Of a stretch of DNA of 64,000 bases, positions 6,971 through 58,232 are shown one piece after another. The position numbers were made by a program, and so were the translations under genes. The notes under the pieces are model-generated. The model was not told where the DNA came from, searched no databases, and saw nothing but the letters and a program-made list of their open reading frames with translations. How positions within the stretch are numbered: position 1 is the stretch's first letter; every line of letters begins with the position of its first letter. Source of the stretch: Anthoceros angustus (lineage: Eukaryota; Plantae; Anthocerotophyta); the NCBI GenBank assembly GCA_010909165.1, contig VJWM01000220.1, forward strand, positions 186,001 through 250,000, given 5' to 3'.

Positions 6971-7279
6971 TTCTGCCTGGAGGCGGTGATGGGTGTTACA
7001 GATTCTGCTCAGATTGGTGGAGCCTGGTGTGGTTGGGGCTGGTCCCTAACGGTCACAGGCAACCTAACCAACCTGGGTCCTTCTTCACGCTTTCAGTTGG
7101 TGTATTGGAAGATGGAGTTGCCCGACTCCGAGCTTGGAGGTGACAGAAACATCTGAAATCACGGAGTTTGCATGAGTTTGTACAAGTTTTTGGCTTGCCT
7201 TCAGCCCCCAGCCGCGGACAGGAATTCACGACGCCCAGGGGGGGAAGCGTACCAGAGACTGCCGCCTCAAGCTCAGGAC

Positions 7280-7651: not shown

Positions 7652-8308
7652 GAGGCCAGGGGCGTTTACGCCACTGGAAGATGCCCGCAATTTCCCTTGT
7701 TGAGAGAATGGGACGTTTACGCTATTGGAAGCTGAAGCAGCTGTTATGGAGGCTACGACGAGCGACCGCGTCCAGATCTATCAGCCACGACAGCTGGGGC
7801 GCCTGTTCACGCATCTGCTATGCTTAGTGTTGTGGGACATTTTTCTTCGGGAACTCCTCGGAACAGTAGGAGGCCGATGTTGCTTAACTCACATCTTGAA
7901 CATCTTGGACCGGCAACTGGCATCTTGAGTTGAGTCCACCAGGCGTGGTCAGCAAATCTTGTACAGTACATCCTCTCCTTGCTGACATGTCAAAACATGG
8001 AAGCCGTAAGACACCAAAGGCGAAGGAACCTTTTGACTGAACAAGGACACGTCACAGTGAAGCATGTCCAATTTTCACATACCTACACTAGGTAAACGCC
8101 GATCCGCTTTTCATGCATCAACAGAAAGAGAAGCGGCCCCTCAAAAATAACTGCTGTCAGGAGCATTGTTGCTGCCAATGTATGACCTCCATGAAGCAGA
8201 CAGGAATCTGACAAACAAAACAGATGTGTACAGCTAAGACGCCCGTTTAGAGTGCGACAAGGGAAAAACCAGCCAGTTTTAGGATCCATCTTGGACACCG
8301 GGTTACCT

Positions 8309-19840: not shown

Positions 19841-19849
19841 GTCAAAAAC

Positions 19850-20830: not shown

Positions 20831-21269
20831 ACATATAAGATGGTGAGGAATAGAATAGTCTATCTACGCTAGATTTTCTGAGCTCCAACGGCCTCGAAGC
20901 TTTCCCTACTCACATAACGTCGATGGTTACAGTGTCACGACTCCCATATCCAATCCGCACACCTCCTGTGCTCGGGCTTTCGGAGAGCTCGACTTGGAAG
21001 GAGAAGCACAATGACCCACTGCATATTCAAAGAAACAAGCTTCTCATCCAACAAGTCGGCTTGAACATGTTGTTTAACCCGAGGACCTCACGGACTCCTT
21101 GCACGAATGTCGTGAGCGAGAGCTCCTCTTACCTCGCCTAGTTTCCCACGCACAAGAGGGGAGTCCTAGGAAGTGGTGATGGGAGGACGTTACTTGGTGT
21201 GGTCACACCGAGAAGCGGTGGCCGCTCAAGTCCGCTACGAGTCAGAGTCCTATCTATTCAAATAGGTAG

Positions 21270-21525
21270 GACTCAAGTCCTTGGTCTTTGGGGTTTGGGA
21301 AGAACAGACTCAAGTCCTTGGTCTTGGGTTTGAATGATGTTCCTTGGTCCTTGGGAAAGTAGCAAGTAGATAGAAGCCTATTTCGAGTCCTTGGTCTTGG
21401 AAGGATGTTCCTTGGTCCTTGGGAAAATGGTATGTAGATAGAAACCTAGTCCTTGGTCTTGGGTTTCGGAAGGATGTTCCTTGGTCCTTGGGAAAAGTAG
21501 CATGTAGATAGAAACCTATTTCGAG
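21270..21525. repeat. About 65-70 bp minisatellite within the module, repeated in six module copies
   Basis: Units of gatgttccttggtccttgggaaa...tagatagaaaccta...gtccttggtcttgg. Confidence 0.85.
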
Positions 21526-32789: not shown

Positions 32790-33095
32790 GCGGGCAAGGA
32801 ATCCTTCCGCCATCGGAAGAGCATTGGGGAATGGCATTTTCACTGATGGAGAGATGTGGAAGACGCAGGAAGACTTCAAGCTTGAGTTCTCTTCAGTGTT
32901 CGTGATTACAACACCAACGCGGAGAGCGGTCTGTCAAGACATTGCCCAAGCCGGAAAGGAGGAGGTTGTTGACATGCGGTGAATGATGGTGTGTGGAGCA
33001 TGTTGCACCGCCTTCTTAATGCGTGAATTTTGCTCGACAGCCAGTGCATTGAAGGATCTCTTCGCATGACATTCGATTCCATTTGCAAAATCGGG
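32790..33095 (+). pseudogene. Captured cytochrome P450 fragment, CYP86 clan (CYP704-like), with an intron (other copies about 34800-35110, 36245-36555, 38385-38692)
   Basis: Consensus across copies: ERLGNGIFNIDGEMWKTQ(R)KTSSLEFSSRV.RDYNT...AGKEEVVDM, then an intron-like gtgaatg...ttgaag, then DLF.RMTFDSICKIG. Confidence 0.85.
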
Positions 33096-36000
33096 CAACA
33101 CCCTTAGGCAAGAGACATGCACCACCATCTATGAGTGCAATCGCGTTCCTTCCACAATTTGTGAGTGCATACGTGCCTTTGCATCTTCCAGCTCACCATA
33201 TTTTGCATCGCCCTCTTTCATGGGTCGCTCAAGCATTGAAAACTTGATGCGCATCTTCTACGCCACACTTTGCCTACATGTCCACCAGGCAAGTGCCCAC
33301 AAGTGTGTTATCTAGCCTCTCTCCACAATCAGGAGTGCACCGCCTTCTCAGAAGGCACTTGCGTTGCACGCCTTAAGGCAAGCAAAGGTAACATGGTTGC
33401 CACAATGTGCCCTCCTTCTCCATTTGTCCATACTAACAAGCGCCTCTCCATGATTTGCATACCCAACTATCGGGCCCATGTCACGACATCCTTTCTCGCC
33501 TAACCTATCGAAACCGTGTTTGCCTCTTCCACCAGCGACATGTCCACCGAGCTTCAAACAAGTTCGGTGGAATGTCACTGCAACATATCATGCCGCACTT
33601 TCTCGCTAGATTCCGTGTCCACAAAGAAATGCACAAGCTTGAAGGTCTACAAAGATGTGGGCATCCGCTTCACACCGAGCACATCGTGATAGTAAAGTTG
33701 TATCGCCTCATTAGGCTCCCCATGTAGCATGTGCGAGATTATTGAAAACCACATGAAGGGATTTGGTTTGCCCACCCTCCGTAGCCTACCTCCGATACAT
33801 ACATCCGCAAGATATGGTTCCCCAAGTATGTGATTGACTGCACCCAAGTTTGATCGTGAGATCATGAACGCGATCCCACAACCATGTCCTTCTTATGCAC
33901 AAAGTTTTAGCACGACATATAATTGAGGAATAGAATAGTCTATCACGCATTTCTAGCTCCAATCGAAGCTTTCACTCACATAACGTCGATGGTTACAGTG
34001 TCACGACTCCCATATCCAATCCAAGACACCTCCTGTGCTCGCTTCTGAGCTCGACTTGGAAGGAGAAGCACAATGACCCACATATTCAAAGAAACAAGCT
34101 TCTCATCCAACAAGTGGCTTGAACATGTTGTTTAACCCGAGGACCTCACGGACTCCTTGCACCGAATGTCGTGAGCGAGCTCCTCTTACCTCGCCTAGTT
34201 TCCCACGACAAGAGGGGAGTCCTAGGAAGTGGTGATGGGAGGACGGTTACTTGGTGTGGTCACACCGAGAAGGCTCAAGTCCGCTACGAGTCCGTAGTCC
34301 TATCTATTCAAATAGGTAGGACTCAAGTCCTTGGTCTTTGGGTTTGGGAAGAAACAGACTCAAGTCCTTGGTCTTGGTTTGAATGATGTTCCTTGGTCCC
34401 AAGCCTATTTCGAGTCCTTGGTCTTGGGGTTCTAAGGATGTTCCTTGGTCCTTGGGAAAATGGTATGTAGATAGAAACCTAGTCCTTGGTCTTGGGTTTC
34501 GGAAGGATGTTCCTTGGTCCTTGGGAAAAGTAGCATGTAGATAGAAACCTATTTCGAGGGCCGAGGAAGGCAACTTCCTTGAACCATGGGAATTCGTTTT
34601 CTAGATATTGCATGTAGGGCTATATATGCATGTTAGGTAGACTGCAGGGGTAAAATTGGCACATTCTAAGAGGCAACCGAGAACGCCCTAAGGTAATGGA
34701 TCGAATCCTAACGGTGTACTAAGAATGGGATGCTCGATTCGAGCATCTTGGATGCTTGTGACACATGTGTTTGTCTCGCTTCAAAATGTGAACGCCACCA
34801 AGTTCATGCAAGGAATCCTTCCACATCGGAAGAGCGGTTGGGGAATGGCATTTTCAACATCGATGGAGAGATGTGGAAGACGCAGAAGACTTCAAGCTTG
34901 AGTTCTCTTCCAGAGTGCTGTGATTACAACACCAACGCGAGAGGGGTCTTCGCGCATTATTGCCCAAGCGGAAAGGAGGAGGTTGTTGACATGTGAATGA
35001 TGGTGTGTGGAGCATGTTGCAATCGCTTCTTAATGCGTGAATTTTGCTCGATGACCGCAAGCCATTGAAGGATCTCTTCGCATGACATTCGATTCCATTT
35101 GCAAAATCGGGCAACACCTTAGGCAAGAGACATGCACCACCATCTATGAGTGCAATCGCGTTCCTTCCACAATTTGTGAGTGCGCTTTTGCATCTTCCAG
35201 CTCACCATATTTTGCGATATCCTCTTTCATGGGTCGTCACAAAAACTTGGCGGCATTTTCCACACCAAATTTTGCATACATGTCCACTGTAGGTGCCCAC
35301 CACTACATTCTCCAGCAGGCCGAGCCCTTGTCAGCCATAAGGGCATTCCATGTCACCATATCCTCGACAAAGCAAGCAAGACTACAAGAAAGGTTAGGAA
35401 TCACCACTAGTTGTCCATCATAGTGAAGACTAAACCAAGAGGTTCTTTGAAATCAAGACACCTCTGTGCCCGGCTGTGAGAGCTCGACTTGGAAGGAGAA
35501 GCACAATGACCCACCGCATATTCAAAGAAACAAGCTTCTCATCCAACAAGCGGCTTGAACATGTTGTTTAACCCGAGGACCTCACCGGACTCCTTGCACC
35601 GAATGTCGTGAGCGAGCCCTCTTACCTCGCCTAGTTTCCCACGCACAAGAGGGGAGTCCTAGGAAGTGGTGATGGGAGGATCCTTGGTGTGGTCACACCG
35701 AGAAGCGGTGGCGCTCAAGTCCGCTACGAGTCCAGTCCTATCTATTCAAATAGGTAGGACTCAAGTCCTTGGTCTTGGGTTTGAAGAAACAGACTCAAGT
35801 CCTTGGTCTTGGGTTTTGAATGATGTTCCTTGGTCCTAAGCCTATTTCGAGTCCTTGGTCTTGGGTTCTAAGGATGTTCCTTGGTCCTTGGGAAAATGGT
35901 ATGTAGATAGAAACCTAGTCCTTGGTCTTCGGGTTTTAAGGATGTTCCTTGGTCCTTGGGAAAAGTAGCATGTAGATAGAAACCTATTTCGAGGGCCGAG

Positions 36001-39000
36001 GAAGGCAACTTCCTTGAACCATGGGAATTCCGCTTTTCTAGATATTGCATGTAGGGCTATATATGCATGTTAGGTAGACTGCAGGGGTAAAATTGGCACA
36101 TTCTAAGAGGCAACTTCGAGAATCGCCTAAGGTAATGGATCGAATCCTAACGGTGTACTACCTAATGGGATGCTCGATTCGAGCATCTTGGATGCTTGTG
36201 ACACATGTGTTTGTCTCGCTTCAAAATGTGAACGCACCCAAGTTCATGCAGGCAAGGAATCCTTCCGCATCGAAGAGCGGTTGGGGAATGGCATTTTCAA
36301 CATGGAGAGATGTGGAAGACGCAGGAAGACTTCAAGCTTGAGTTCTCTTCCAGAGTGTTCGTGATTACAACACCAACGCTGCAGAGACAGTGCTTTGCGG
36401 CAAAAGATTATTGCCCAAGCCGGAAAGGAGGAGGTTGTTGACATGCGTGAATGATGTGTGGAGCATGTTCAACTTCTTAATGGTGAATTTTGCTCAGATT
36501 GGGCAAGCCATTGAAGGATCTCTTCGCATGACATTCGATTCCATTTGCAAAATCAAGAACACCCTTAGGCAAGAGACATGCACCACCATCTATGAGTGCA
36601 ATCGCGTTCCTTCCACAATTTGTGAGTGCATACGCGTCTTTTGCATCTTCCACCACCATATTTTGCATCGCCCTCTTTCATGGGTCGCTCAACTGCCAAA
36701 AACTTGGCATTTTCCATCAAATTTTGCATACATGTCCACGTAGGTGCCCACCACTACATTCTCCAGCAGGCCGAGCCCTTGCTACCCATAAGGGCATTCC
36801 ATGTCACCATATCCCCATAAAGCAAGCAAGACTACAAGAAAGGTTAGGAATCACCACTAGTTGTCCATCATAGTGAAGACTAAACCAAGAGGTTCTTTGA
36901 AATCAAGACAACATCCCCACTTGCCAATTAAGACGATCCATGTAACGTAGGGGTCGTTGTTCAATAGCATCCATCATAGCATATGATGGGCGAACCAGAG
37001 ATGAATAGATTCTTGAATCAAGAAACGATTATCCCCACTCGCCAAGACCACATCCATGGTGCTCCCATTCCTCCTCCATAAGATGATCCAAATGACGAGG
37101 CGCTGCTCTACAGCCTCTCAGTGTCCAAAATTTGTCGCCTTATTCTCCAAAACCTCGGAAGGAGGATTCGCACCGACTCCTCTCGAGGTACTTAGCGCCA
37201 ATTTGAGTAGGCGGGACAACTTCCCTACATCGGGCGGGGAACCCTGCCGCCAGATGGCGCCACTTGTTCGCATGGCGAAACGGGAGACTTGTATCACAAC
37301 CATCTTGTGAAGCGACCCTATGTCCTCACCTTGTTTACTATGTGTCCTCAACAATGGTCCGAAGGCTCGCATTTTCCACAGGTAAAGCGGCCCGAGTACA
37401 CCGCCGTGCTCGCCACAAGAAGCCGTGAAAGGTGGAACCCCAAGATACAAAAACCCCGCTTGAGTGCGCCATCGGAACAAAGGCGGGTATCCGCTGCAGA
37501 AATCATCAACGTCGTCTTCTTTACTCTTTCCGACTATCGCCGAGGCAAACGCCAAGATCGATACCACACTCAAAGAAAAAGAGATTGATTTGTGGCCCAA
37601 TTCTAGTGCGGCCATCACCGCTACCAAGAAGCCAAGAGGTCGATCATCGAAATTGGCGCAGAACTACGCCATCGCAACAATCGGTCAGGCGCTACGTCGG
37701 CGAACCCTTAAACCACGAACCCGTTGCCTCCCAACCAACCCAACAAGTCCAACGGGGATGTGATGCAATTTGAAGAAGGACGCGGCGGGCCGGCAAGAGC
37801 CTACGCACTAACTATCTCGATGTCGTACCCATGTCGCATTAATATGCATCCGAGTTCAAGTCCGCTACTCAGTCCAGTCCTATCTATTCAAATAGGTAGG
37901 ACTCAAGTCCTTGGTCTTTGGGGTTTGGGAAGAAAAGACTCAAGTCCTTGGTCTTAGAATGATGTTCCTTGGTCCTAAGCCTGTCGAGTCCTTGGTCTTG
38001 GGTTCAAGGATGTTCCTTGGTCCTTGGGAAAATGGTATGTAGATAGAAACCTAGTCCTTGGTCTTGGGTTTTGAAGGATGTTCCTTGGTCCTTGGGAAAA
38101 GTAGCATGTAGATAGAAACCTATTTCGAGGGCCGAGGAAGGCAACTTCCTTGAACCATGGGAATTCCGTTTTCTAGATATTGCATGTAGGGCTATATATG
38201 CATGTTAGGTAGACTGCAGGGGTAAAATTGGCACATTCTAAGAGGCAACCGAACTGCCCTAAGGTAATGGATCGTGAATCCTAACAAAGGTACTACCTAA
38301 TGGGATGCGATTCGAGCATCTTGGATGCTTGTGACACACATGTGTTTGTCTCGCTTCAAAATGTGAACGCATCACCCAAGTTCATGCAGGCAAGGAATCC
38401 TTCCACATCGGAAGAGCGGGGAATGGCATTTTCAACACCGATGGAGAGATGTGGAAGACGCAGAAGACTTCAAGCTTGAGTTCTCTTCCAGAGTGTTCGA
38501 TTACAACACCAACGCGTTTAGAGGCGGTCTGTGGTGATTATTGCCCAAGCCGGAAGGAGGAGGTTGTTGACATGCGTGAATGATGGTGTGAGCATGTTGC
38601 ACCGCCTTCTTAATGCTCGAATTTTGCTCAGATTCAGCAAGCCATTGAAGGATCTCTTCTCGCATGACATTCGATTCCATTTGCAAAATCGGGCAACAGT
38701 TAGGCAAGAGACCACCATCTATGAGTGCAATCGCGTTCCTTCCACAATTTGTGAGTGCAACGTTCTTTGCATCTTCCACCACCATTTTTGCATCGCCTCT
38801 TTCATGGGTCGTTCAACTCAAAACTTGGCGGCATTTTCCGCTCACCAAATTTTGCATACATGTCCACGGTGCCCACCACTACATTCTCCAGGCCGAGCCT
38901 TGCTGTACCCATAAGGGCATTCCATGTCACCATATCCCGACAAAGCAAGCAAGACTACAAGAAAGGTTAGGGAATCACCACTAGTTGTCCATCATAGTGA

Positions 39001-41344
39001 AGACTAAACCAGGTTCTTTGAAATCAAGACATCCCCACTTGCCAATTAAGACGATCCATGTAACGTAGGGGTCGTTGTTCAATAGCCGTCCATCATAGCA
39101 TATGATGGATGAACCAGAGAGAACCGAGATTCTTGAATCAAGAAACAGCTTATCCCCACTCGCCAAGACCACATCCATGGTGCTCCCATTCCTCCTCCAT
39201 AAGATGATCCAAATGACGAGGCGCTGCTCTACAGCCTCTCAGTGTCCAAAATTTGTCGCCTTATTCTCCAAAACCTCGGAAGGAGGATTCGCACCGACTC
39301 CTCTCGAGGTACTTAGCGCCAATTTGAGTAGGCGGGACAACTTCCCTACATCGGGCGGGGAACCCTGCCGCCAGATGGCGCCACTTGTTCGCATGGCGAA
39401 ACGGGAGACTTGTATCACAACCATCTTGTGAAGCGACCCTATGTCCTCACCTTGTTTACTATGTGTCCTCAACAATGGTCCGAAGGCTCGCATTTTCCGC
39501 TCACCAAATTTTGCATACATGTCCACGGTGCCCACCACTACATTCTCCAGGCCGAGCCTTGCTGTACCCATAAGGGCATTCCATGTCACCATATCCCCGA
39601 CAAAGCAAGCAAGACTACAAGAAAGGTTAGGGAATCACCACTAGTTGTCCATCATAGTGAAGACTAAACCAGGTTCTTTGAAATCAAGACATCCCCACTT
39701 GCCAATTAAGACGATCCATGTAACGTAGGGGTCGTTGTTCAATAGCCGTCCATCATAGCATATGATGGATGAACCAGAGAGAACCGAGATTCTTGAATCA
39801 AGAAACAGCTTATCCCCACTCGCCAAGACCACATCCATGGTGCTCCCATTCCTCCTCCATAAGATGATCCGTAGGCGCGGCTGCTCTACGCCTGTGGAGT
39901 GTCCAAAATTTGTCGCCTTATTCTCCAAAACCGGAAGGAGGATTCAACTCCTCTCGAGGTACTTAGCCAATTTGAGTAGGCGGGACAACTTCCCTACACG
40001 GTGGAACCCCAAGCCGCCAGATGGCGCCACTTGTTCGCATGGCGGCAAACGGGAGACTTGTATCACAACCATCTTGTGAAGCAAGCGGGGCTATGTCCTC
40101 ACCTTGTTTACTATGTGTCCTCAACAATGGTCCGAAGGCTCGCACCGGTTTTCCACAGGACAAGCCAAAGGCGGCCCGAGTACACCGCCGTGCTCGCCAC
40201 AAGAAGCCGTGAAAGGTGGAACCCCAAGATACAAAAACCCCGCTTGAGTGCGCCATCGGAACAAAGGCGGGTATCCGCTGCAGAAATCATCAACGTCGTC
40301 TTCTTTACTCTTTCCGACTATCGCCGAGGCAAACGCCAAGATCGATACCACACTCAAAGAAAAAGAGATTGATTTGTGGCCCAATTCTAGTGCGGCCATC
40401 ACCGCTACCAAGAAGCCAAGAGGTCGATCATCGAAATTGGCGCAGAACTACGCCATCGCAACAATCGGTCAGGCGCTACGTCGGCGAACCCTTAAACCAC
40501 GAACCCGTTGCCTCCCAACGGAACCCCAACAAGTCCAACGGGGATGTGATGCAATTTGAAGAAGGACGCGGCGGGCCGGCAAGAGCCTACGCACTAACTA
40601 TCTCGATGTCGTACCCATGTCGCATTAATATGCATCCGAGTTCAAGTCCGTTGCCTTGGATGCATTCGATGAAAGCGGCGATGCGGTGGAGCGCGCGAGG
40701 TCGCGGGTGACCGAGCGCCATCGCAACGTGGAAATGGACCATGGTATCACCGCTTTGCAACATTGATGATTTCACCGGACATGCAAGGATCCGCATCGAG
40801 TAGAACCCCAACCCAACAGTGACCTAGCATGTTTTAAGAAAAACTAAAAATATTTTTGAACACCAACCTATATCAACTATCTATCTATCCTCCCATCGCC
40901 TCTCCCTCTTTACCTCTTCGCATTGTACCCTTCCTTGCCCCGCATAACATGTCTATTACTCCAACTCTACTATGTAACTCATTGGTCATCATCCGCTCAT
41001 ACTATCGCCATCTTCATCATCCTCACTCATGCTATCCCCGACTAGAAGCCTCACGTTGTACTCGGCCTTCCACTAGAAGCCTCACGTTGTACTATGCGTC
41101 TTCCACGACGCTTGTACTCACCATAATTATAATTAAATAAGTGAAATATTTAAGACTTGGGATACTTTTTATACTTATAAGAAAAGCTTTAAAATATTTT
41201 TCAACCTATCAATTACCTATCTATCCTCCCACCCTCTCCACTCCTTATCCCTCTATCGCCTCCCCACTCCTTATCCCTCTATCATCTCCCTTCCCCTTCT
41301 CCTTTCCACATAACAAGTCTATTACTCCAACTCTACTATGTAAC

Positions 41345-44300
41345 TCATTGGTCATTATCGCTCACGCTATCATTGTCTTCATCATCCTCACCTATGATAT
41401 CCGCATCCTCATCATCTTGACTCATGTTATCCTCGTCTTGAGCCTCACCTTGTACTATGCCTTCCACGTGCGCTTGTACCCACCACAATTTTCCATGCAT
41501 TTTAGAATTCTCATACAAAAGACTTGCTCCACTTTCTCCGATACTAGTACAAATGGCTCATCCTCCAACTTATCATTGGATAACATGACATCGTTAACCA
41601 TGAACATACGAGATGTATCTTTTGATGGTGTGTGCTCTTTGTTCCATTGAGCCTTGAACCATCTCACCTTCAACACATTTACTTTTTAGACGGCCCTAAG
41701 TCCACCTCCAAAATCTTTTCCACCTTTCCAAAGATAGGGAAAATGCTATAATAGGTTCGGTGTCCCGCGATGAAACACATGCTTGGCTATATAGATGTTT
41801 TATAATGCTATCACATGTATTCTTTCCCCTATCTCGCATCTATAGTCCTTATATGATTTCCATATGCCCACATCATTTTATATGATCGCACACTGAGGAG
41901 GTCCTCGCACAATTGGTCCACATCCAACCCATAGGTTTGTACCGCATTTCCCTTTCGCTACTTTAACTTCATCTATCAACCATTCGCAAAAGGACGCTGT
42001 CGTCATATACACACTTTTCGCCATTTTTGAGTACAGCTGAGTTTTCCACTAACACTTTCCTCATCCGTTGCATTTCCACATCATTCGGTCATAATTTTGC
42101 CATTCCTTGCAATAACACCCCACATTGGGTGACATCATCTTGATTTCCACACTCTTGGTGCCTCTTCATGTGTATTTCCAAAGAACTCGAGCTATAAAAC
42201 ATTATCTCTTGTGCTAAGTATCCTAAAGCCATGCTACCTTCGTCGGGCTTTCGTCGAACAAGTCCCTTTAACACTTTCATGTGCCTTTCTAAGAAATACA
42301 TCCATCGATATCGAGTTGGTCCACATAATTCAACCTCCCGCACAAGATGAACAACAACATGTACTTGACTTGTCGAAAAGTCGTTGGAAATTCCCTCCAA
42401 CACACACATGATCTCCACACTTTTCACCTTCATAGCTGGAATTTCATCCTTCGCAATTTCTTTTGAACAAAGCCACCGAATAGCTCGGCAAGATCACATA
42501 TAGCCTTGTGAACATCATGATGTATTAATCCTTTCAAGACAATTGGCCACAATCCGTAATGATGGTGATGATCATGAGACTTTAACCCCGAAAATTCCCT
42601 CTTCTCTCCTTTAGAAAACAACGCTCAAATTTGACCCATACCAGGAGTACGTATGCAAATCCTTGTTCTCAATTTTTCCTCTGCATTAGCATACATTCGC
42701 CTCTTTTGCTGCCATGTCCAAGAACCTGTGGTCGTGTCGTTATAAATGTCCGTCCCTGGTTCGCCAGTTTTTGCTACCTTGCACCCCATTTACAATGTTT
42801 TGGCCTCTTTGTCTCCTTCCAACAGCGATGGCCTCGCATGGGGCCACCAATCTTGTTTGGTATTTGAATACTCAAGATCTCTACGACTAAGGGAATCTTG
42901 ATTCCCACATATGTGTGCCAAAATCTGACTTACATTCTTTCCAATGTGCATGATATCAAATAAGTGTCCGATCAACAATATCTCGCAACCACCAAATAGC
43001 ATGACTAAAAGTTAACCTTCATGAATAGCTATTAGTCTACCTACCGATGCTACCAATAATATAATTAAAATATTCTTGAAAAGGGTAATACTTGCAAGAC
43101 CCCATATGCATGCATACATACCTCCCAAGATGGAAGCTCCCGAAAATTGAAGGCTCGCTAGTAACACCCTGTCTGCCTTCACCATTGTCTTTTGCATATT
43201 TCCTTAAAGCTTTCGATCATAATATCCTCCGGAGTTGGTGCATAGTCCGGATGAATAATTTCCATCTCACCTTTCCATTGAATGAATCCCGCTCTTCCAC
43301 TCTAAACTTGTGTTCCTCGTAAAATTTTCTAAAATTCTTATCATACGTCATTTTGTTTGTGAACATTGACTTTCTTGCTTCTAATTTGTCCCAACATATT
43401 GGACATGCCCGCTTCCCTTTTGTTTGCATTTTAGAAGTGAAAGAATATCCTGGATAATCATGCATCGCCCACAACAATAAGGCCTTCAATTTAAATTGTC
43501 TTTGAGCATTTCCAATAGCCATAGAAGCATCTTGTACGACCACACCTTCCTCCCAGACCTTCAACTCTTCGATGAGTGGTTGAAAATATATATCCGCATC
43601 TTTGACTTGCTTCGGACCGTGAATAATCATTGACAACAATATATGCCCATTCTTGATAGATAACCAAGGAGGCGTTATAATTGACAAGAAGCACGGCCAT
43701 ATAGAATACCTAGAACTTTGGTGCCCAAAGGGATTAATCCCATCCGTAGCAAGTCCTAATCGAATGTTGCGCCTCCTTAGCAAACTCGGATAAGTGTTGT
43801 CCACATGTTCCCATGCATAGCTATCCGATGGGACCCGCATAATCCCATCATTAGACTTATTTGTGGCGTGCCATGACATCATACTTGCTAGCTCCGGACA
43901 TCTAAACATTTGTTTCAATCTAGGAATCAATGGAAAATATCAAGTAGCTTAACTGCACACACTGCTTCTTCGTGTCAATTCGATACCTATGTTTCCACAC
44001 ATCTTGCGAATAGCAATTAAAACTCGTGAACAACATACAATCATCTTGACAAGCATGTATGGATGTATATGTTAGGCCAAACCCTTAAGCATCTTTTTAA
44101 TTTCAGCCCTACTTTTGGCAACTTGTTGCCAATCGGGAGGCCTAATTTGCCTAGTAATGATAAAATTGAATTCAAAGATGCATCCGACCAGCCATGCCTC
44201 CTTTGGATGTTCAATAACAATAAAATGAATGCCAATAAACTTATCTCGGCTCCAACCCATAGAGGCGTAGTTGCGGTGTGCATCGCCTTTAATTCCTCGT

Positions 44301-44460
44301 GCAAGGAATCGACTGTTCTTTAGTCATTTCGCGATGCGAAACCCCACCAAGTGCCTCCACCAACTCTATGGTCACTTGTTCGTCGGGATGAATGTTGACA
44401 TGTTCTTCATCAACCTCAAAATGATCATCAACCTCAATAAAATCTTGTTCCTCTTCAATC
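41345..44460 (-). pseudogene. CACTA TnpD/Tnp2-type transposase, frameshifted as assembled
   Basis: TPLWVGAEISLLAFILLLL...HGWSDASL...LPIGNKLP, IPRLKQMF...MSWH...MRVPSDSYAW...RNIRLGLATDGINPF...YSIWP, DYPGY...ACPIC, HLFDIMHIGKNV, GLKSHDHH, VHVVVHLVREVELCGP.RYRWMYFLERHMKVLK, DEPFVLVSEKVEQVF, and an acidic tail ending in TGA at 41345. Confidence 0.95.
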
Positions 44461-44653
44461 GATTATTCAATCACACGCACAAAATAAATATCAAATAAGT
44501 ATATAAAATATTGTAGTACTATATAGAATAAATTATATTATAATTTAATAACTTTAGTATAACCACTATTATTAAGGAAATATTGAACAACATGCAAAAC
44601 TAAAAGGTTAAGAAGTCAAGTCGAGATATACTAATTGTTTTGTTGCGATATAG

Positions 44654-45517
44654 TCAATATACACAAGGTACAAGACCCTCAACATCAACTCTTCTACATC
44701 CTACAACAAAAACTATTCCACATCCTCGTGCATCAACTTTGCCTTCAATTTCTTCCACTCCATCTGCGTAATTTAATGTGTCTATGTACTCTTCCGGCCT
44801 TCCTTTTGGCTTCAAATGGTTCGGGTTATACCAATTGTAATCAACAAACAACTCTTCCCAGCATTAATGGTCCTCACGCCCAAGTGCAAATCCAATCAAG
44901 ATGGTCGCCACTTAGTAGCTCATGCCCATCCGACCTTTCTTCCCAAATGCAATTTTGCTTGATTGCGATATTTCCACTACTACTATTCATATATCCCGCC
45001 ACATTCCCATATGCAACATGCCCATCGAGGTACTCAATTGGGCCATCATTAACATCTTTACGGAGTCTATTGAAAGTCAATGCATACTGAATCAACTGTT
45101 GTAGTTCACTATCTTGTTATATTCTCCTGTATACTTTGGACCCCAAACACAAACAAAGGAACTCCATTCACATTATCTTTTCTCACTACGATTTTCTCCA
45201 TGGAAAATAAACCCAACCCCATGGCTGGGTTTGTTGCCTCCTTCACTATCCACCTTCGCCCCAATATAGAAATGACTTGTTAATAGGAATAGGTCCCTTC
45301 TCCCACATTCCCCATTCTCTAGGGTACACGCCTTTCAAAAGATGCTTGTATAAAACAATAGCATCATGAGACTTTGGATCTTCCCCTCTTTTGGATGATA
45401 AGGAGGTGCAATAAAGGGTCCATCGCCTTTCCATCCAAAGGTTTTCCTACACCGCAAAGCCATGTGTCCACTCCTACGCTGACTTGTTATAACATGCAAA
45501 TTTCAAACTCCTTCCAA
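44654..45517 (-). pseudogene. SET-domain (lysine methyltransferase-like) coding region inside the CACTA, broken by about five frameshifts as assembled
   Basis: Manual join of frames gives RWIVKEATNPAMGLGLFSMEKI (GLGLF at 45219-45205)...LFVFG/GPKY...QYAL...YLDGHVAYGNVAGYMNSS (45008-44979)...QNC...ICTWA/VRTINAG/ELFVDYNW (44854-44831). The SET motifs appear in canonical order and spacing. Confidence 0.75.
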
Positions 45518-45737
45518 CTATAAAAAAACAACCATAATTACACATATGAATAATTAAACTACCTTTAATATAACAAGAGAAACATACTTACCACAATTAG
45601 TATGCCACATCGAATTATTCTATAGATAATATTATATAATTGCTTTATTATTGTATTTTCTAGCATAGAAGAAAAGGGCTCCATAATTACTTCATTAGTT
45701 TATTTCCTAGCATAGAAGAAAAGGATTGCAACTCACG

Positions 45738-45913
45738 TTGTGGCTACGGTGGTTCTCCTTGTCGCTATTTCTCCTCCTTCTCCTCCTCCTCCTTCTCCTC
45801 GTCCTCCTTCTCCTCCTCGTTGTTCTTCTCCTCCTCGTCCTCCTTCTCCTCTCGCTCTTCTTCATCTCCTTGCGGTTCTCCACCGGGACTTCATTCTGGG
45901 AGGTAAGGTCCAT
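45738..45913 (-). other. Purine-rich low-complexity putative first exon (Glu/Lys- or Arg-rich) upstream of the SET exon
   Basis: ATG at 45913, a GAG/AAG-rich tract, donor-like gtgagt at about 45737, an AT-rich interval, and acceptor tttttttatag before 45517. Confidence 0.4.
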
Positions 45914-47335
45914 TCTTGCGCAAATGTTTACGTATTGGTTAGCTCACGAACTCGCCTTGCACTCTTTGCACCAACATTTTGGAAAATATATTGGATATTT
46001 GGGCGCTTAAATCTACGAGCGATCCATAAGGACCTACCCTCAACAATGATCGTGGGTTAGCTTAAGCTCGACAACACTTGCCCTGCCTTCACCGAGCACG
46101 TTGGAAAGTGCAGAGGCTACCTTCGATGAAGTGCTCCGGCCCTCGCTCCAACCTCCGATCCGAGCGTAAATCCGCATAAATCGAGCCAATTCTAATCTAG
46201 AGCAATTCCATGCAACCGATAACGCGATACTCAAAACGCTTTACAAAGAGCATAGACCTGCTGAACGGACTTGTAGCTATCTAGCATCCGGATGGTCGAT
46301 TTAGGTGTGCACCGTTTTTATTGACCCTTGCTACTAGAAGGCCCTCGCCACGCACGATGGAAGGCCCTTCTAGCTATGTAGTGGATGGTTAGTAGCTGGG
46401 ACAAGAGAAAGGCCTCTTACATGGTGCTTGTTAGTCAATCCAAAGCGCTTTACAACACGAGGCGTTGCAAATCGGTTTGGGAAATTTGCAACGCTCTCTT
46501 ATCAACGCACTCAGCAACATTTGCAACGCACTCGCAGCAGCCAATTCTAATCATGAGCAATTGCATGCAACCGACAATACTCAAAACGCTTTGCAAAGAG
46601 CACCGACCGAACGGACTTGTAGCTATCTAGCATCGCGGATGGTGCCGACCCTTGCTATGAGAAGGCCCTCACGCACAATGGAAGGCGGCTTGGCCTCTTA
46701 TCGATGCCGCTGAAACCATGAAAGCAGGCCTCTTACAGTGCTCGGTCCAAAGCGCTAGCTAAGCAACAGCGGGCAATTTGCAAAGCATTCGGTAAAGCAC
46801 CGTAGTGTGCTATTGATATAGCCTTAGCTTACTTAAGGCGCAAGCCTTTCCTTATTTGCGTGGGACTCAAGATTGTGAAATGTGTGAGCAACTTTATATC
46901 AAAAGCTCGATGCCTTTACATCACCGATAGGATCGTCTTTGCCAACCTCGCATGACTTGGGTAGACTACGAAACCACATTTGTGATGAGTTCATTATCAC
47001 TCGATCCGGCTCGGTCCGTATCGGAGCATAGTCTTCACAAAAGCGTAAGGTGGCTCGTCGTGCTCCATTCGTGATGCCGATTAAAACCTTGAGCCCCTCA
47101 AACAAAATCTACCTTATTAGCATTTATCATGCAAAAGATCACTCAGACTTTTACACTTACGATAGAAGGAGATGATTAGGTTGGGCACAAGATCAGATTT
47201 CTCCAAGTCGAGTCATCCGAGTTCCGCTTTCACAAAAGTAAGCCCTTGGAGACCGGATCGAGAGTAGTACCAACTGTGATGATAGCACTCAAGGCGCATG
47301 GAAGCATGTGACCAAAAAACAAGGACGAGTTCCAT

Positions 47336-47640: not shown

Positions 47641-48498
47641 GTCCTCGGCCGCCCGCCAGTTGTCTACCGCCATCACCTCCGGATGGTTCTCGGCCGCCCG
47701 CCAGTTGTACCGCCATCGCCGCTCAAAACGCACTTGACGGCCGGTGCTTAACACAATCGGAGTTCACAACCGAGTTCACAATCGGTCGGACAAACACAAT
47801 CGCTCAAAGTGTGTGCTCACTTTGAGCCGCAACCGCCGACTTGGGAACGGATCAGCTATAAAACTATAGTGTCTGCACTGAGGCTGAAACAGGAACAAAG
47901 TGAGGCCCCAAGGAGCCCCTTACTCTCAAACTCCATGGCGTCAAAGAAACCATATGTGGGTCTTTCAACTGTCTCGGCGGTACGAGAGTGGGTGTGTGTT
48001 AATGCGGAACCTCGAAATGCGCTCGTGCGATCGAGGATTGAACTCTCATTAGGTACCGCCTAGCCCGCTTGTCAGATCGGCAACATCAACAAGGCATGAT
48101 GATGAGTGCCAAGAAGACTTAAATTCTTTAGCGACCGTTTAAGGAGGGGCGAATCGAGGTTTTAAGACTCGGGCTCAAGTGGATGGCCGAGGAAGCATTG
48201 CCCTTTAGCCCTTATTCTATTCATTCCCACCGGATCTTTTACACATTAAAGGGGCACGAGTCCCAAGCAATAGCCTTGAAAGCACCTAAGGGACAACATA
48301 GCTACGCTCCATACAATCCTCTATCTCGCCATCAAAATATCTCCGAGGAGCACACTACGCTAAGCCTCGTGCTCAAGCACTCCGTTTGTCATATCTTGCC
48401 ATTTTCATGCCAATGGTTTCCCTCAAAAGGAAAGAAGCATTAAAGCTTTATTTGTAGGCTTGCATGGGTCACCATCAAAACCTCATCACTCATATGCT

Positions 48499-48805
48499 TT
48501 CACCCGTTTTCGGGTAATTGCAGTTGCGGCATGGGGACCTCTTCCACTCCTCCAATATTGTGTCCGATTGAGTTTGATCGGGATGAGCTATTTGCCACCT
48601 TTGGAGTATCAAGGAGGATAAAAGTGTTTGAGTTTGCAACGGTGGTCAATGACATGGCTGATGTGCATTGTCCCATGGTAGAAATGTCTACCCGCTCCAA
48701 ATTGAGTTGTCGAGTTGGAACAAGTACATAAAGTCGCACATTGCGGCGTGATTATGAAGGGATTGCAAGATGGGATGTGAATACGTGCGAGCATCACGGA
48801 GTATG
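48499..48805 (+). pseudogene. COP1: Captured COP1 WD40-region fragment
   Basis: FTR..RVIA/LRHGDLFHSSNIVS/IEFDRDELFATFGVSRRIKVFEFATVVNDMADVHCPMVEMSTRSKLSC/SWNKYIKSHIA/DYEGI..WDVNT matches the start of the plant COP1 WD40 domain. Confidence 0.92.
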
Positions 48806-51039: not shown

Positions 51040-53447
51040 GCTGCGGTGGAGAACAAGCCTCCTCCCGATGCGTGGAGGAGGAGCAGCCTCCCGATGCCGT
51101 GAGGAGGAGCAGCCTCCTAATGCCGTGAGGAGGAGGCCGCCTCGATGCCGTGGAGGAGTACCGCGCGCTCCCCATGGGCTTCACTGTGGAAGAGCTCGTG
51201 CCGCTGGAGAAGCGAACCGACTGCCTCAAGTCACCACCACCTCCTCTTAGGTCTTCGGATGAGAGAACAAGGGCCACCAGTGGCTTATGTGCACACGCAG
51301 ACCTTTTGAGAAAGATGATAGCACGAAGAAGGCAGCTGCTTCCTCCCTTGTCCGTGACACCGGCTCAAAACTTACCTGGACCTTCAATCCGGTGTCCAGT
51401 ACTCCCATGCCACTCCTACTCCTAACCCTTCCGTCAATGTTGGTTCTCGCTTTGAAGAAGTGCAGTGATGGAGCAGCAAGAAGTGGAAAATCCACTGTGG
51501 AGGAGGGAGATGGCGTGACGGAGATCCGCCGCAATTGCCAAGGAGAAATCGAATTAAAGGGAGATCGCCCAAATGCACGCACGTCATTCCACAATCGGAC
51601 ATTCATCTAGAATCGTGTTCTTGGTTTTAGTTGAAACCGACTTTGCTTTTACTTTCATAAGCTTGTCCAGTGTGTGTGTGGCCTTGATCGACGCCCAATG
51701 TTTCTTTTGGTCTCTCAAGCAGCAAGTGTGTGGCCTTGATCCGATGTTTCTCTTTTGGTCTGGTTGCCTAAAGCCACAAGTGTGTGGCCTGATCCGTATT
51801 TTCTATTGGTCTGCTGCCTAAACATGCGTGTGTGTGGCCTTGATCGCCTGGTGTTTCTTTTGGTCTCTCAAGCCTAAACAGTGTGTGGCCTTGCCCGTGT
51901 TTTTTTGGTCTCTCAAGTCTAAACTGGCGGTGTGTGGCCTGACCCATGTTTCTTTTGGTCTCGCAAGCCTAAACATGCGTGTGTGGCCTTGATCGCCCAT
52001 GTTTCTCCTTTGGTCTCTCAAGCCTAAACAGTGTGTGTGTTTCTCGTTGGTCTCTCAAGCCTAAACATGCAGTGTGTGGCTGCTTGGCTAACTGCATAGG
52101 ATGTACATGCCACATGCTCGCAGCATGTGCTCAGACAAGCATGTGGCCTATACATGCCACTTACAGCCACATGCGCACGCATGTACAAGCATATTCGATG
52201 TTTTCCTTCTCATGTGTCGTTGGATTAAAGAAGATTCATACGCTTATGAAGTGCTCCAATTTCGGTTGAGGTGGGTAATGCGGCACTTCATGGATCCATT
52301 GATTGGCAACCGGGAGAGAAACTAGAGACACAAGCAATTGTGGAGGCACATTCAAGAGATGTTGGTGGGATTTGGAGCATGGCTCATGTGTGTGACCAAA
52401 TGTTCAACACCATGTTGCGCAATTGGAAGAACAATCTTGCAAGATGCGCAAGACAATTTCTTGAGGGTAATCATCCACCTAAGTATAAGCCTCGTGATAT
52501 CTCGGCCGACCGTGGGATCGCATTGTGGAGAATGAAAAGCCAAGGCCGGGATGGAGATCGCACAAAAACGCATAGCAATGTTGAGGAAGTTGAACTCGGA
52601 TGCCCACCGTATGCCCACTTTGGTAATGGTGGGTTTGTGAAGTTTACAAATCGGTTTTACCAACTCTTTGGTAGACGCCCCACGGAGCAAGAGATGAGGG
52701 TGGCAAGAAGGCCGGAAATTGGATAATAAAACTTGAAACATATTGGACGCCAATCTTCCTCATCCGAGCGTTTGGCTCCAACCCCGAGAATAGGTGCCAA
52801 ACAATTGTGGCGGACCTCAAGGATGCTGGTTACAAAGATGATGATTTGGATGGTAAGATTTTGATTTGATGTCTTTGCAAGTTTTGATTGTCCTATTTTA
52901 ACTCGTTTTTGGATTTGCCATAGGAGCCGTAATCCGGCATTGGAGCGCAAGCAAGTGGATGATGACGGCTGGTTTTGGACAATTTGGTGCCTAGATTGAA
53001 GCCCGGGTTAAGTGAGGATCTTTCTCCTCCGTAGTTCTTATAGAAGATCTTTCAAGTCTGCTTGTTGTAACACCGGCTTCTTGGTAACATATTCGATTCT
53101 TGCAGAATCGGTGGCCTCCGCCTCGGGTGGGAAGCCTTAACCTCCCAAGTGTGGTCATGTGGAACGAAGCCACGATGAAGTACTTGTTGAAGTTGAACCA
53201 CTCCATCTCATGGAAGAGGTGGAAGAATTTGAAGAGGTTGAGGTATCCCTCTCTAAATGCAGGAAAAGTTTTTCAATCTCATGGCCTCTCATCGAATGAC
53301 GACAGAACTTGAAGCTCAACGCCTGCTGGAAGCTAGGTCCGGACTACGCCAAAGAGCTCAAGTCATCAAGGGTGAAGAGCATGAAGAGGAAGGAAATGAG
53401 GCTTCAACAAGTCCAATTTGAAGAGATCAAGGAGCGAGGAATTCTAG
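51040..53447 (+). pseudogene. Second CACTA ORF (possibly TnpA/ORF2-like), divergent from the transposase, frameshifted and probably spliced
   Basis: A QPPDAVEEE-like peptide repeat at 51050-51160 and a repeat-filled intron-like stretch at 51620-52230. ORF 52271-52726 contains MLRNWKNNLAR...KPRDIS...YAHFGNGGF, reminiscent of the HxxGxxGY/F motif of CACTA ORF2 proteins. The family assignment is weak. Confidence 0.4.
51668..52080. repeat. About 55-60 bp minisatellite, roughly 8 copies
   Basis: Units of gtgtgtggccttgatcgcccatgtttcttttggtctctcaagcctaaaca. Confidence 0.85.
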
Positions 53448-54150: not shown

Positions 54151-54374
54151 GAGGATCTGTTCATTTTGGGGTTTAGAATCGCTTGCATTTGGTAGTAGCA
54201 TTCCATTTCGTGTCCCACTAATGCACAACAAGGTGAGATACAAAATTTACAACAAAGGACGTTGTAAAACACTTGTTGTAAATATGCCCCATTTAAAGAA
54301 GCTGAAAATAGATATTTGTGTTATTAATAATATGTATTTTGTTTAAAGTCTTTACATATATATAATACTTAAAA

Positions 54375-55562
54375 GGCGTTGTAATTTAAATGTTGTAATA
54401 TGTTGTAGATGGTTTTGTAAAACACTTGTTGTAAAGCGTTGTAATTTAAATGTTGTAATTGCTTGCAATTGGGATGTAGATGGTTTTGAAAACAGTCGTT
54501 GTAAAGCATTATAAACTTAGATGAATTAATATGTTGTAGATGGTTTTGTAAAACCGTTGTAAAGCGTTGTAATTTAAATGTTGTAATTCCTTTTGCAATT
54601 GGGATGTTGTAGATGGTTTTGTAAAACAGTCGTTGTAAAGCGTTGTACCCACAGACGTCTCAAACTTAGATGTTGTAATTGCTTTGCAATTGGGATGTTG
54701 TAGATGGTTTTGTAAAAGTGTCGTTGTAAAGCGTTGTACACCGAGACGTCTCAAACTTAGATGTTGTAATTGCTTTGCAATTGGGATGTTGTAGATGGTT
54801 TTGTAAAACAGTCAAAAGCGCGTTGTACCCGCACCGAGACGCCTCAAACTTAGATGTTGTAATTGCTTTGCAATTGGGATGTTGTAGATGGTTTTGTAAA
54901 ACAGTCGTTGTAAAGCGCGTTGTACCCGCACCGACGCTCTCAAACTTAGATGTTGTAATTGCTTTGCAATTGGGATGTTGTAGATGGTTTTGTAAAAGTG
55001 TCGTTGTAAAGCGTTGTACCCCAGAGACGTCTCAAACTTAGATGTTGTAATTGCTTTGCAATTGGGATGTTGTAGATGGTTTTGTAAAACAGTCGTTGTA
55101 AAGCGCGTTGTACCCGCACAGACGCCTCAAACTTAGATGTTGTAATTGCTTTGCAATTGGGATGTTGTAGATGGTTTTGTAAAAGTCGTTGTAAAGCGTT
55201 GTACCCACACCGAGACGCCTCTCAAACTTAGATGTTGTAATTTTTTGCAATTGGGATGTTGTAGATGGTTTTGTAAAACAGTCGTTGTAAAGCGCGTTGT
55301 ACCCACACCGAGACGCCTCTCAAACTTAGATGTTGTAATTGCTTGCAATTGGGATGTTGTAGATGGTTTTGTAAAACAGTCGTTGTAAAAGTTGTACCCA
55401 CACCCCAGACGTCTCAAACTTAGATGTTGTAATTCCTTTTGCAATTGGGATGTTGTAAATGGTTTTGTAAAACAGTCGTGTAAAGCGTTGTACCCACAAG
55501 ACGCCTCAAACTTAGATGTTGTAATTCCTTTTGCAATTGGGATGTTGTAAATGGTTTTGTAA
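54375..55562. repeat. Right subterminal tandem array, unit about 90-95 bp, about 10 full plus a few degenerate copies
   Basis: Unit agatgttgtaattgctttgcaattgggatgttgtagatggttttgtaaaacagtcgttgtaaagcgttgtaccc...gacgtctcaaactt, starting at about 54668, 54759, 54852 and onward. Confidence 0.93.
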
Positions 55563-55897
55563 ATGGCACCACGTCATCACATGGTGATGTGGCAATGAGG
55601 GCCATGTCATCAAATTATGCCATGTCATCACCGATGATGTGGCAATGAAGGGCCATGTGGCAACAACATGCCATGTCATCACTTGGTGATGTGGCGATGT
55701 GGCGCCACATCACCACTTTAATGACAATCGAACCGCCATGTCGCAATTTTACAACATCATGAAGTTTTGCCATAACCAAGAGTTGGCGCCTGCTTTTACA
55801 ACATCATGAAGTTTTGCCATAACTACAGTTGCGCTGCTTTTACAACGTTGTAACACCCGCTGTAAAACCGCTGTAAAACCCTCATTTTCTTGTAGTG

Positions 55898-58232
55898 TTT
55901 CGGGCCTCAAGGAGGGAGAGCTTGAGTGGGCGCCTAGGGCCGAGGCCCCGCCAAGTAGAGCGCAAGGGCGCCCGGGGCCGGAGGCCTGTGGCAGAGCGCA
56001 AGGGCGCCCGAGGTGGGGGTCGCCCTTCAAGCGACTGGGAGGAGGACGATCGAGGATTCCTGACTCCATACGCCTGAGCGAACCCCTCACCACCTGTGAA
56101 GTTTGGGAGGCGATTCCCTTCCTCCTTTTGGTGCCCTCCGAGTGCAGAGGGAGCGATGCCGGAGGGCGCTGGCGCCCGCACCGATGCAACAGCCCAACAA
56201 CCACGACCGCCGAGCCCCGACGAACTCAGGGAGCCAAGAGGAAGACGGTGCCGCTTACCAACGCAAAGACCTCGTAAGGTGCCGATTCCCCCGCCTACCT
56301 GAGTGGCAAGAGGTCAAGAGGCGTAAGGAGGGCGTAAAGGGACGTGGCCCAAGGAGCAGGAGGTCACCGCGCAGCCCACCTCGAGCCGGCCCCTGCCCCG
56401 GCTGTGAAGGGGCAAAAGAGCTTGCTCCTGACCCCTCACCTCCTCCGAGCCCTGTGAGAAAGAGGGCACAAAGGAGTTAGAGGCCAAGAGGGCCAAGAGG
56501 GTGAGACTGACCACCACTGTGACCCGAGGGTCCCGATTAGGTCCGAGAACCCACCGACTTACGATCATGGAGGTCCTGGCGGATCGAGAAATGCCGGCTC
56601 CCACTACGGACTTTGTGGGGCCTCACTGGCCGTGGAAGAAACACAAGTCTGCTACCGCCATGGACGGAATGCTTTGGGGTCTCTGGTACATGAGAAGACC
56701 TGTGAAGTGGAGGCCACCCGAGGAGGATGGTGGAACCCAAGAGCAAGTGAAGGCCGAGGGGCAAAGGAAAGGCGGAGTCCCTCCGGATCGAGGAAGGGAA
56801 ACGGTGGCGGAGCGCGAGGCCCGGCGGTTCAAGCAGACTGGTTAAGGTTCTTCACCATCAAGCAAGCTCAGAGGCCCAAGCGGGCGGAGGACCTTGTGCT
56901 AAGAGGGAAGCGCAGCAGAGGCTAAGAGGCCCCGCACAAGCAGAGAGCTCGGACCGCGGAGGCGGCCAGAGCAAGGCCAAGTGGGCGAGGCCTGTAAAGG
57001 CGGCGGAGCCTGCCGCTGCAAAGAGCGACCGGATCACCATGACGTGATCGAACCGTGGAGAGAGTCACAGTACCGAGGTTACTGGCGGCGCACAAAGGCC
57101 ATGGAGGTAAGGGCTGAGATAGGGGATCTCCGAGTACACGCAGAGGTAGAAGGAGGCGAGCAGATGGAGGATGAAGGACACGCTGGAGCTACAACCCAAG
57201 ATGCGCTTGAGCAGCAGTGATTCTCAACGAGAGAATCCACGACGAGCACGAAATAGTGCCCGGCCTCCTCAAGACGGAGGAAAATCGCGACTATCCAAGG
57301 AGTTGGACGCTGTGCTGTATGAGCCGGAGGAAGTCCGAGCCTGGACGAGGTATCCGATCACTGGAGAGGGAGTCATGAGCTAAAGGCCGTAATGAACGGA
57401 GGAGCGCGAGCACCGGAAGTGTAAAAGAAGCCGTCCAAATGAGAAAGGCGGAAGGGAACGCCGCGCTATGGCGGTAAGTCGCAATGGAAAGGAAACGACG
57501 GAGCCGGAGCAGGGAGCAATGGCACTGCAGGAGGTGACCGAGGCCGCCTTGTAGCCTCGGATATGCCGGCCCCACACAACCGGGCAGGAGAGGTGGCCCA
57601 ACAACAAGCAAAGACGCCCCCTAACACTTATGGCGGAGGGAGTATCGGTGCCCGCACACGTGGAAGAGGCACCAACAAGTCGATCTGACTTTGCCTATTA
57701 CCACCGAGCCCCGGCGAGAAGCCTCTCGACTCAGAAACGGACGGACCTGGAAGGCTCAAGGAGATGAAGGCCACGGGACAAAGACAGGACCCTAGTGGCC
57801 CCTGCTTGGAGATGACGGAGCGGAGAGGAGCAACCGAGGAGGAACGAGGGAGCGCGATGCGATCGAGGTAAGCACCCCGCACCTCACCATGGAAGGAGGG
57901 GCCAACGGCGAGTCACCGGATCGGGAACAGGAGGACTTCGAGGAGAGCCACTGAGGAGTCCCGTGAGGGAGGAAACCCGGTGGCGTGAGTCCGACTTTGT
58001 CCGGACCCAGAGGAGGACCAAGTCCGGACTCAGAATAAGTCCGACTCAAGTCCGGACTGAATAAGTCCGGACTCAAGTCCGGACCACAAGTCCGGACCAC
58101 GAGGTCCGGACCACAAGTCCGGACCACGAGGTCCGGACCAAGTCCGACTCAAGTTCGTGAGTCGAGACAGACCTCGAGGACCGGCCGGGCAAGAAGGAGG
58201 AGCCCCTTCGACTTACGCTTAGGGGAGCAGAA
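55898..58232 (+). mobile_element. 3' region of a gypsy-like element: degenerate extra ORF, short tandem repeats and putative polypurine tract
   Basis: GC- and purine-rich coding-like sequence continuous with 18367-18604, agtccggac repeats at 57988-58150, and purine tract aggggagcagaa at 58221-58232 directly before TG. Confidence 0.55.

Follow-up and report, generated by a model that had tools for sequence, protein, structure and literature searches.

A CACTA transposon of Anthoceros angustus carries a SET domain of a distinct clade, probably within its transposase gene

Red-algal Plavaka elements, which belong to the EnSpm/CACTA superfamily, carry PAG2, a DNA methylase fused to a SET domain that has been proposed to modulate transcription (10.1101/2025.02.11.637652), and in Phytophthora the HarbingerS and MuDR families encode histone methyltransferases of the SET type (cited in PMC12730594). 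Helentrons have a SET open reading frame (ORF) of ~150 residues, the SET domain being 50% similar to that of Clr4 (PMC4067079), and in SETMAR (Metnase) a methyltransferase domain is fused to a transposase (PMC9062482). VANDAL VANC and Spm TnpA are anti-silencing products (10.64898/2026.08.24.746577, PMC13547354); TnpA arises together with TnpD by alternative splicing (Spm3) and leads to hypomethylation of its own family (10.64898/2026.08.24.746577). As far as the available portions of these sources go, those anti-silencing factors of plants that have been tested to date, VANC and TnpA, are proteins that bind DNA, and transposon-borne SET genes of algae and oomycetes are known from sequence, with a function that is proposed only.

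The window analyzed here, a 64,000-nucleotide stretch of Anthoceros angustus contig VJWM01000220.1, contains a CACTA element of 37.3 kb with CACTACAAG termini at 18605 and, on the opposite strand, at 55897, and with TTT on both flanks. Its ends, repeats and cargo are arranged as follows.

18602..18604, no strand: left copy of the target-site duplication TTT, the same TTT standing at 55898-55900
18605..18613, plus strand: left terminal inverted repeat CACTACAAG, matching the right end at 9/9 first bases and 14/30 first bases
18700..19800, no strand: left subterminal repeats TTTACAA / TTGTAAA, 15 copies in kb 18-19, in tandem units
19800..40650, no strand: internal cargo of repeatedly duplicated blocks, mostly 87-95% alike, with PPR-like and P450-like scraps
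48444..48800, plus strand: COP1-like scrap, a captured fragment, apparently intronless, assigned by eye with no Pfam match
52250..52726, plus strand (opposite to the transposase): 158-codon ORF, possibly a TnpA-like accessory fragment, with no Pfam match
54250..55888, no strand: right subterminal repeats including a 92-bp unit in 10.5 copies, with 32 motif copies in kb 54-55
55889..55897, minus strand: right terminal inverted repeat, reading CACTACAAGAAAA, the 13-mer being the sole exact match in the window
55898..55900, no strand: right copy of the target-site duplication TTT, pairing with 18602-18604

A CACTA/EnSpm element is expected to end in terminal inverted repeats of CACTA(A/G) type and to be flanked by a target duplication of 3 bp, and both are found here. 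The subterminal repeats of this superfamily are also present, with the TTTACAA/TTGTAAA motif occurring at no more than 3 copies per kb elsewhere, except in two inner clusters of 7. Both of these clusters lie inside the cargo (19800-40650), which holds ~20 kb of duplicated sequence, and they are possibly remnants of element ends; an inverted repeat whose 27-bp arms match perfectly across a 4-nt spacer (23519-23576) sits within one, the second being near 30500. The cargo also shows nested direct duplications (for example 21626-25975 versus 28484-32642) and a 489-bp unit in 2.9 copies (26278-27703), and its duplications are either real Pack-type amplification or an assembly artefact. The PPR-like scraps gave a weak Pfam match below cut-off (E=0.003), while a Pfam scan of the element ORFs gave no match for the P450-like and COP1-like scraps; we take the former to be P450-derived and, by eye, the 48444..48800 fragment to be COP1-derived. 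The ORF at 52250-52726, whose resemblance to TnpA is likewise one that we presume by eye, was considered as a relative of the SET protein and ruled out, being unrelated on comparison. Outside the element, Copia-type retrotransposon gag, protease-region and integrase pieces are found at 13427-15292 on the minus strand, and host-type genes for a peroxidase (2128-2652), a Maf-like protein (6299-6967) and an F-box protein (9105-9848) are present. The immediate flanks (17400-18604 and 55898-58000) are GC-rich and purine-skewed, have no Pfam match, and may be the two halves of one older repeat split by the CACTA insertion.

The transposase gene and the SET domain share the minus strand, and are given here from the 3' end of the gene to its 5' end.

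41450..44480, minus strand: TnpD-type transposase core, indel-broken, with Transposase_21, DUF4218 and weak DUF4216
44481..44653, minus strand: AT-rich gap separating SET exon from transposase core, ~170 nt, GC 0.20
44654..44830, minus strand: tail of ~55 codons 3' of the SET domain with a stop at 44654, from reading frames
44831..45279, minus strand: SET domain of a distinct clade without cysteine clusters, with four single-base breaks and a fifth near 45258
45280..45517, minus strand: 5' portion of the SET exon, with an N-terminal extension that is conserved, from a match to the related protein P0004 and a third-position bias against a divergent copy
45518..45736, minus strand: predicted GT-AG intron, GC 0.26, donor 45736 and acceptor 45518
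45737..45990, minus strand: upstream exon with a CxCxxC…HL motif (45976) and then a glutamate-rich tract, like a transposase-associated domain

Pfam places Transposase_21 at 43220-43939 (E=3.7e-52) and DUF4218 at 42092-42493 (E=2.8e-22), and the motifs ATDG, HDYP, CPIC, SHDHHHH and MYFLER represent the acidic, C(2)C and H-rich motifs of the enzyme. The CACTA/EnSpm DDE transposase is defined with C(2)C and H(3-4)H motifs in the available part of PMC12730594; a transposase of this type is what the window holds, with its frame broken in this assembly, and the combination of Transposase_21 with CACTA ends is not that of a Harbinger, Mutator or Rep-helicase element. No coding start belonging to the transposase core itself is seen upstream of it. 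An internal duplication (40832-41558, 68% alike) with an acidic reading lies at the gene's 3' end. From its base composition and position, the gap at 44481..44653 is probably an intron, or a 3' UTR plus the end of an intron; a consensus splice donor was looked for at the 3' end of the window SET exon and was not found.

SET domains are defined by GxG, NH(S) and ELxxxY motifs. On the minus strand, and in three frames, the window reads MGLGLF at 45222, YAL at 45086, YLDG and GNVAGYMNSS at 45032-44979, RTINAG near 44870, ELFVDY near 44850 and the stop at 44654, so that GLG, NSS (with the His replaced) and ELFVDY follow one another in sequence. These are the motifs that a sequence-only reading of the same DNA had quoted in SET order, and they are borne out between 45290 and 44654. 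When the window's three single pieces were scanned with Pfam SET (PF00856), none matched (0/3). For the frameshift-aware profile search proposed with that reading, a profile was made from seven relatives, with the window sequence left out; it aligned full length to 45279-44831 at 97.0 bits, compared with 14.0±1.1 bits for 12 shuffles and 13-19 bits for 6 stretches of the neighboring transposase, which places the SET match far beyond chance and agrees with the earlier statement that the whole domain is present. Likewise upheld were co-orientation with TnpD, as both Transposase_21 and DUF4218 lie on the minus strand, a distance of about 200 bp or less from the transposase coding region (the gap is ~170 nt), and a composition similar to that of the transposase (GC of SET exon and transposase alike, 0.40-0.43). 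The extent of 44654..45517 once assigned to the feature holds for the SET region, whereas the larger unit to which the domain belongs, predicted to be spliced, begins near 45990 and thus outside it. The window SET domain shares 35-56% identity with six proteins and with the related contig L001, and 26% with the contig L002, and no pre-SET or post-SET cysteine clusters occur in the window or in its aligned relatives. Judged by sequence, it belongs to a distinct SET clade.

A search of 1.84 billion representatives with an 80-residue middle piece gave 3 matches. One of them, P0003, was real, while P0001, with cadherin repeats, and P0002, with SEA repeats, were discarded as spurious; P0003 led to P0004, and a four-row profile then gave P0005-P0007 (3 of the 7998 candidates scored). 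In a metagenome scan 2 of 221 pattern matches were confirmed, L001 and L002, while a first metagenome scan (0/169), viral contigs (0/20 and 0/53) and prokaryote genomes (0/92) yielded no confirmed pattern match; given the prokaryote result, no close bacterial source is seen by those patterns. No homologue was found among 27 candidates when the 80-residue piece was compared with longer proteins. We scanned nine relatives or pieces for SET (P0003-P0007, P0009, P0014, the L001 ORF and the L002 piece): two passed PF00856, namely P0006 (E=7.2e-7, 30 bits) and the L001 ORF (E=1.4e-5, 25.9 bits) against a cut-off of 22.4, three had matches below cut-off (P0005, P0009, P0014) and four were without a match, P0004 and P0007 among them. 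Domains that accompany SET in SUVH, ATX/trx, ASH1 and E(z)-type proteins (pre-SET, AWS, post-SET, SRA, PHD, PWWP) had no Pfam match in P0005, P0006 or the L001 ORF. Such extra domains are the features that distinguish SUVH, ATX, ASH1 and E(z) proteins, and with the cysteine clusters also absent the earlier view that this is not a plant gene of the SUVH/ATX/ASH/E(z) kind stands. The P0005 cluster has 9 members, several of them split or partial, as expected of a repeat. Within this cluster (members P0008-P0015), P0010 and P0014 each represent half of a single gene, on contigs of equal length (8102), which suggests a broken copy among near-identical ones. An Atlas search with the window piece returned SET clusters in 2 of the 3 rows listed (0.85), which serves as a lead only, and one with P0003 returned unrelated clusters.

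The position of the SET domain relative to the transposase became clearer from the DNA of the two related loci. On L002 the SET domain lies at 1124-1573 (E=1.7e-20), with in-frame stops and the final Tyr absent, and a co-oriented transposase is present (Transposase_21, E=2.5e-12); identity to the window is 26% for SET and 33% for the transposase over its best segment. A transposase is present at 1/2 related loci, L002 only, and L001, whose contig runs for only 225 nt beyond the stop of SET, is silent on this point. Positions 1-80 of L001, at the contig start and upstream of the gene, hold short TTCGCAAAT / TTTGCGAAAT repeats, which may be subterminal repeats. A CxCxxC motif, which in the window reads CWCKEC…HLRKNG, occurs on the same strand 420-700 nt upstream of SET in 3/3 DNA loci (window, L001, L002); the motif was spotted post hoc, and one would be expected by chance at ~0.07 per locus (within 750 nt). 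The L002 copy has PF13963 as its sole Pfam match (E=0.038, 14.6 bits, below the 27.7 cut-off), the L001 copy had no PF13963 match in the Pfam scan, and the window's copy, which is frameshifted, was not picked out by a two-sequence profile of the motif. We take PF13963 to be the N-terminal domain of TnpD. Because the cysteine motif is transposase-associated-like and stands upstream of SET in the window, L001 and L002, SET appears to fall within the transposase gene, and on this sequence arrangement it probably lies there after an N-terminal cysteine-motif exon. On L002 the motif and SET share one frame and are followed by the co-oriented transposase; on L001 an in-frame splice over a predicted GT-AG intron would give a 341-codon frame of motif plus SET with the stop directly after SET, and the P0005 and P0006 proteins end no more than 6 residues past the final Tyr, both of which favor a separate SET product. 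The order of motif, SET and transposase is common to the window and the independent contig L002, and its recurrence at 26% SET and 33% transposase identity implies that the SET-transposase pairing is old and no chance capture. The sequence-only reading had placed SET next to the transposase: adjacency to the core holds, and with the cysteine-motif exon upstream a place inside the transposase gene is more probable than a separate neighbor gene. Its inference of a resident element gene fared well, given the CACTA ends and 3-bp duplication, the distinct conserved SET family, and the same order of SET then transposase at the diverged L002 locus.

This assembled copy is indel-broken. Homology requires five single-base breaks, near 45258, 45143, 45102, 44875 and 44855, the P0004 match covering 45290-45258. 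Short-read contigs (run X1) carry a one-base insertion at 45258 and at 44876, in the direction needed at 2/5 breaks, from which we conclude that part of the frame damage is assembly error; these figures rest on 12 of 39 indels listed. Among those 12, the indels at 45062, 45125 and 45226 match no needed break and would disrupt the frame unless compensated by other indels. X1 contig depth over the SET exon is 166-198 versus 31 for a nearby 2.2-kb contig, suggesting that the SET exon is present in several copies, depth being a rough guide that gives no copy number. The 2.2-kb contig matches 44331-44590 and then continues into unrelated sequence, and among 8 of 172 X1 pieces listed only a depth-5 contig crosses that exit point. 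A divergent X1 contig has 22 base differences (13 of 22 listed) and also a one-base deletion. Leaving aside the 2 listed differences downstream of 45259, 7 of the 11 listed upstream fall at third positions of the homology frame, against 2/11 in each other frame, and 6/10 codons are synonymous (P=0.039), which speaks for selection on the SET frame. CHG is depleted in the window SET exon and transposase and in L001 and L002, at an observed/expected ratio of 0.30-0.60 versus 1.16 in window positions 1-11000, as expected after long methylation.

Catalytic roles in SET enzymes belong to GxG, to the NH-motif Asn and to the Tyr that ends ELxxxY, and all are kept in the window, P0005, P0009, P0006 and L001. 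Their retention across relatives only 35-48% identical favors catalysis, and the residue pattern suggests that the SET protein is an active enzyme. Throughout the family, Ser, Asn or a similar residue takes the place of the NH-motif His. A replaced His and a small residue two before the Tyr recall PR-type SET domains; the PR profile had no match in the scanned relatives (P0005, P0006 and the L001 ORF among them). Structure prediction, the other check proposed with the sequence-only reading, was carried out and gave two AlphaFold models of pLDDT 28.5 and 34.4, neither usable. A Foldseek search with the second of these low-pLDDT models returned nothing at E<=0.001, MLL SET rows at E>6 not being counted, and sequence searches of solved structures returned no SET protein; a phosphorylase match (E 0.04-0.1) was rejected as a 28-residue chance alignment. 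Pfam and structure prediction largely fail to detect this SET clade, which is therefore probably under-annotated.

From these sequence features we propose, with confidence evenly divided, that the CACTA SET exon would give rise by alternative splicing to a small lysine methyltransferase that marks the element's own chromatin to keep it active. One promoter would give two transcripts: one joining the cysteine-motif exon to the SET exon and ending at the stop after SET, the other linking that first exon to the transposase core, in the manner in which Spm produces TnpA and TnpD. Through the N-terminal domain that both products have in common, the SET protein would be recruited to the element or its transpososome, where the mark written would, as a best guess, be activating histone methylation of the H3K4 or H3K36 type, and such marking of its own chromatin would counter silencing of the element. 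The wider proposal of an old land-plant CACTA lineage that has a histone methyltransferase in its transposase gene, whether as spliced sister or fusion, and writes activating marks on its own copies is one of which we are less than half persuaded, and we offer it tentatively.

The same exon order could also reflect a constitutive SET exon and a single SET-transposase fusion, SETMAR-like and still mobile, that would methylate chromatin at the element ends or at new insertion sites. In the window and on L002 the SET exon has the cysteine motif on one side and the transposase core on the other, motif and SET share one frame on L002, and the core's lack of its own coding start is as such a fusion would have it; in addition, the Trp-stop ends of P0005-type proteins resemble a TG|GTAA donor, and we infer an equivalent from the TG|GTATAA that the window has there. 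However, L001 and P0006 stop shortly past SET with no strong donor before the stop, and the 3' end of the window SET exon offers no consensus donor, such that we regard a constitutive fusion as possible but unlikely. Proteins of the SET family with non-histone targets, or inactive ones, are common, and a resident SET product might accordingly methylate the element's own transposase or a silencing factor, or act as a catalytically weak binder or decoy. Replacement of the NH-motif His across the family, the absence of pre- and post-SET zinc clusters and the lack of detectable likeness to any solved SET sequence would all suit a product of this kind, which the kept GxG, Asn and final Tyr at 35-48% identity nonetheless render doubtful by favoring catalysis, and nothing here indicates a non-histone target.

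We consider each of the two remaining explanations very improbable. Were the exon a fragment of a host gene, incidentally captured like the PPR-, P450- and COP1-like scraps, it would be in keeping with an element rich in such pieces and with the X1 contig that joins the 5' region of the transposase to other sequence. An independent locus, L002, nevertheless has the same order at 26% and 33% identity, the domain is whole and matches the transposase in composition, the repeat-like P0005 cluster has nine members with several split or partial, and read depth (166-198 versus 31, a rough guide only) suggests several copies, all of which make capture a poor prospect. That the motifs are a chance resemblance in a domain without a SET fold is the least credible reading, to be entertained only in the slightest degree: the window pieces lack a Pfam match, the predicted folds are of low pLDDT and the P0003 Atlas search led to unrelated clusters, but the alignment with relatives that score above the Pfam SET cut-off spans the entire domain, its motifs are correctly ordered, and two of the three Atlas rows listed for the window piece are SET clusters (0.85, a lead only). 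The preferred reading stays that of a spliced sister of the transposase.

Compared with known systems, the locus comes nearest to Plavaka PAG2, likewise a SET domain (PF00856) on a giant EnSpm-superfamily element. PAG2, by contrast, as described in the available part of its source, is a separate gene that shares a three-gene cassette with PAG1 and PAG3 and occurs with a Plavaka transposase, whereas the window has a transposase of Transposase_21/DUF4218 type and a SET domain 3' of a transposase-associated-like motif; the two are set apart here by description and not by sequence. The DNA methylase domain PF01555 had no match in the relatives or in 148 element ORFs, a scan in which short or frameshifted ORFs could be missed. 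As far as their sources are available, the HarbingerS and MuDR families resemble the window as cut-and-paste transposons with a resident SET gene and differ in superfamily and in their oomycete host; Helentrons share a transposon-borne SET domain of ~150 residues, yet they are rolling-circle elements, and the window SET clade matched no solved SET sequence. SETMAR serves as the template for the fusion alternative, unlike the window a domesticated, immobile, single-copy primate gene with a mariner transposase. TnpA and VANC provide the model followed here, that of a second element product, sometimes spliced from the transposase gene, which counters silencing of its own family; they differ in being DNA-binding regulators, with no SET or methyltransferase domain named for them in the available text. 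The sequence-only reading knew of no described SET-encoding CACTA family, which, within the literature covered, still holds for land-plant Transposase_21 elements, while the EnSpm superfamily already has Plavaka PAG2. No SET domain in a land-plant Transposase_21-type CACTA element was found in a survey of the full-text literature, whose scope excluded Repbase Reports and most subscription journals, and the available parts of PMC11982613 and PMC12477816 do not mention SET domains for plant CACTA elements; such an element may have been described before. SET cargo being known in algal and oomycete transposons, the new part is probably the variant, a distinct clade embedded in a plant CACTA transposase gene, and the cysteine motif upstream of SET in the window and both related loci is new here. 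If the proposal is true, a plant transposon would counter silencing enzymatically, beyond DNA binding alone, and with intact natural versions in P0006 and L001 the question of whether a transposon can write its own chromatin marks becomes directly testable in a plant.
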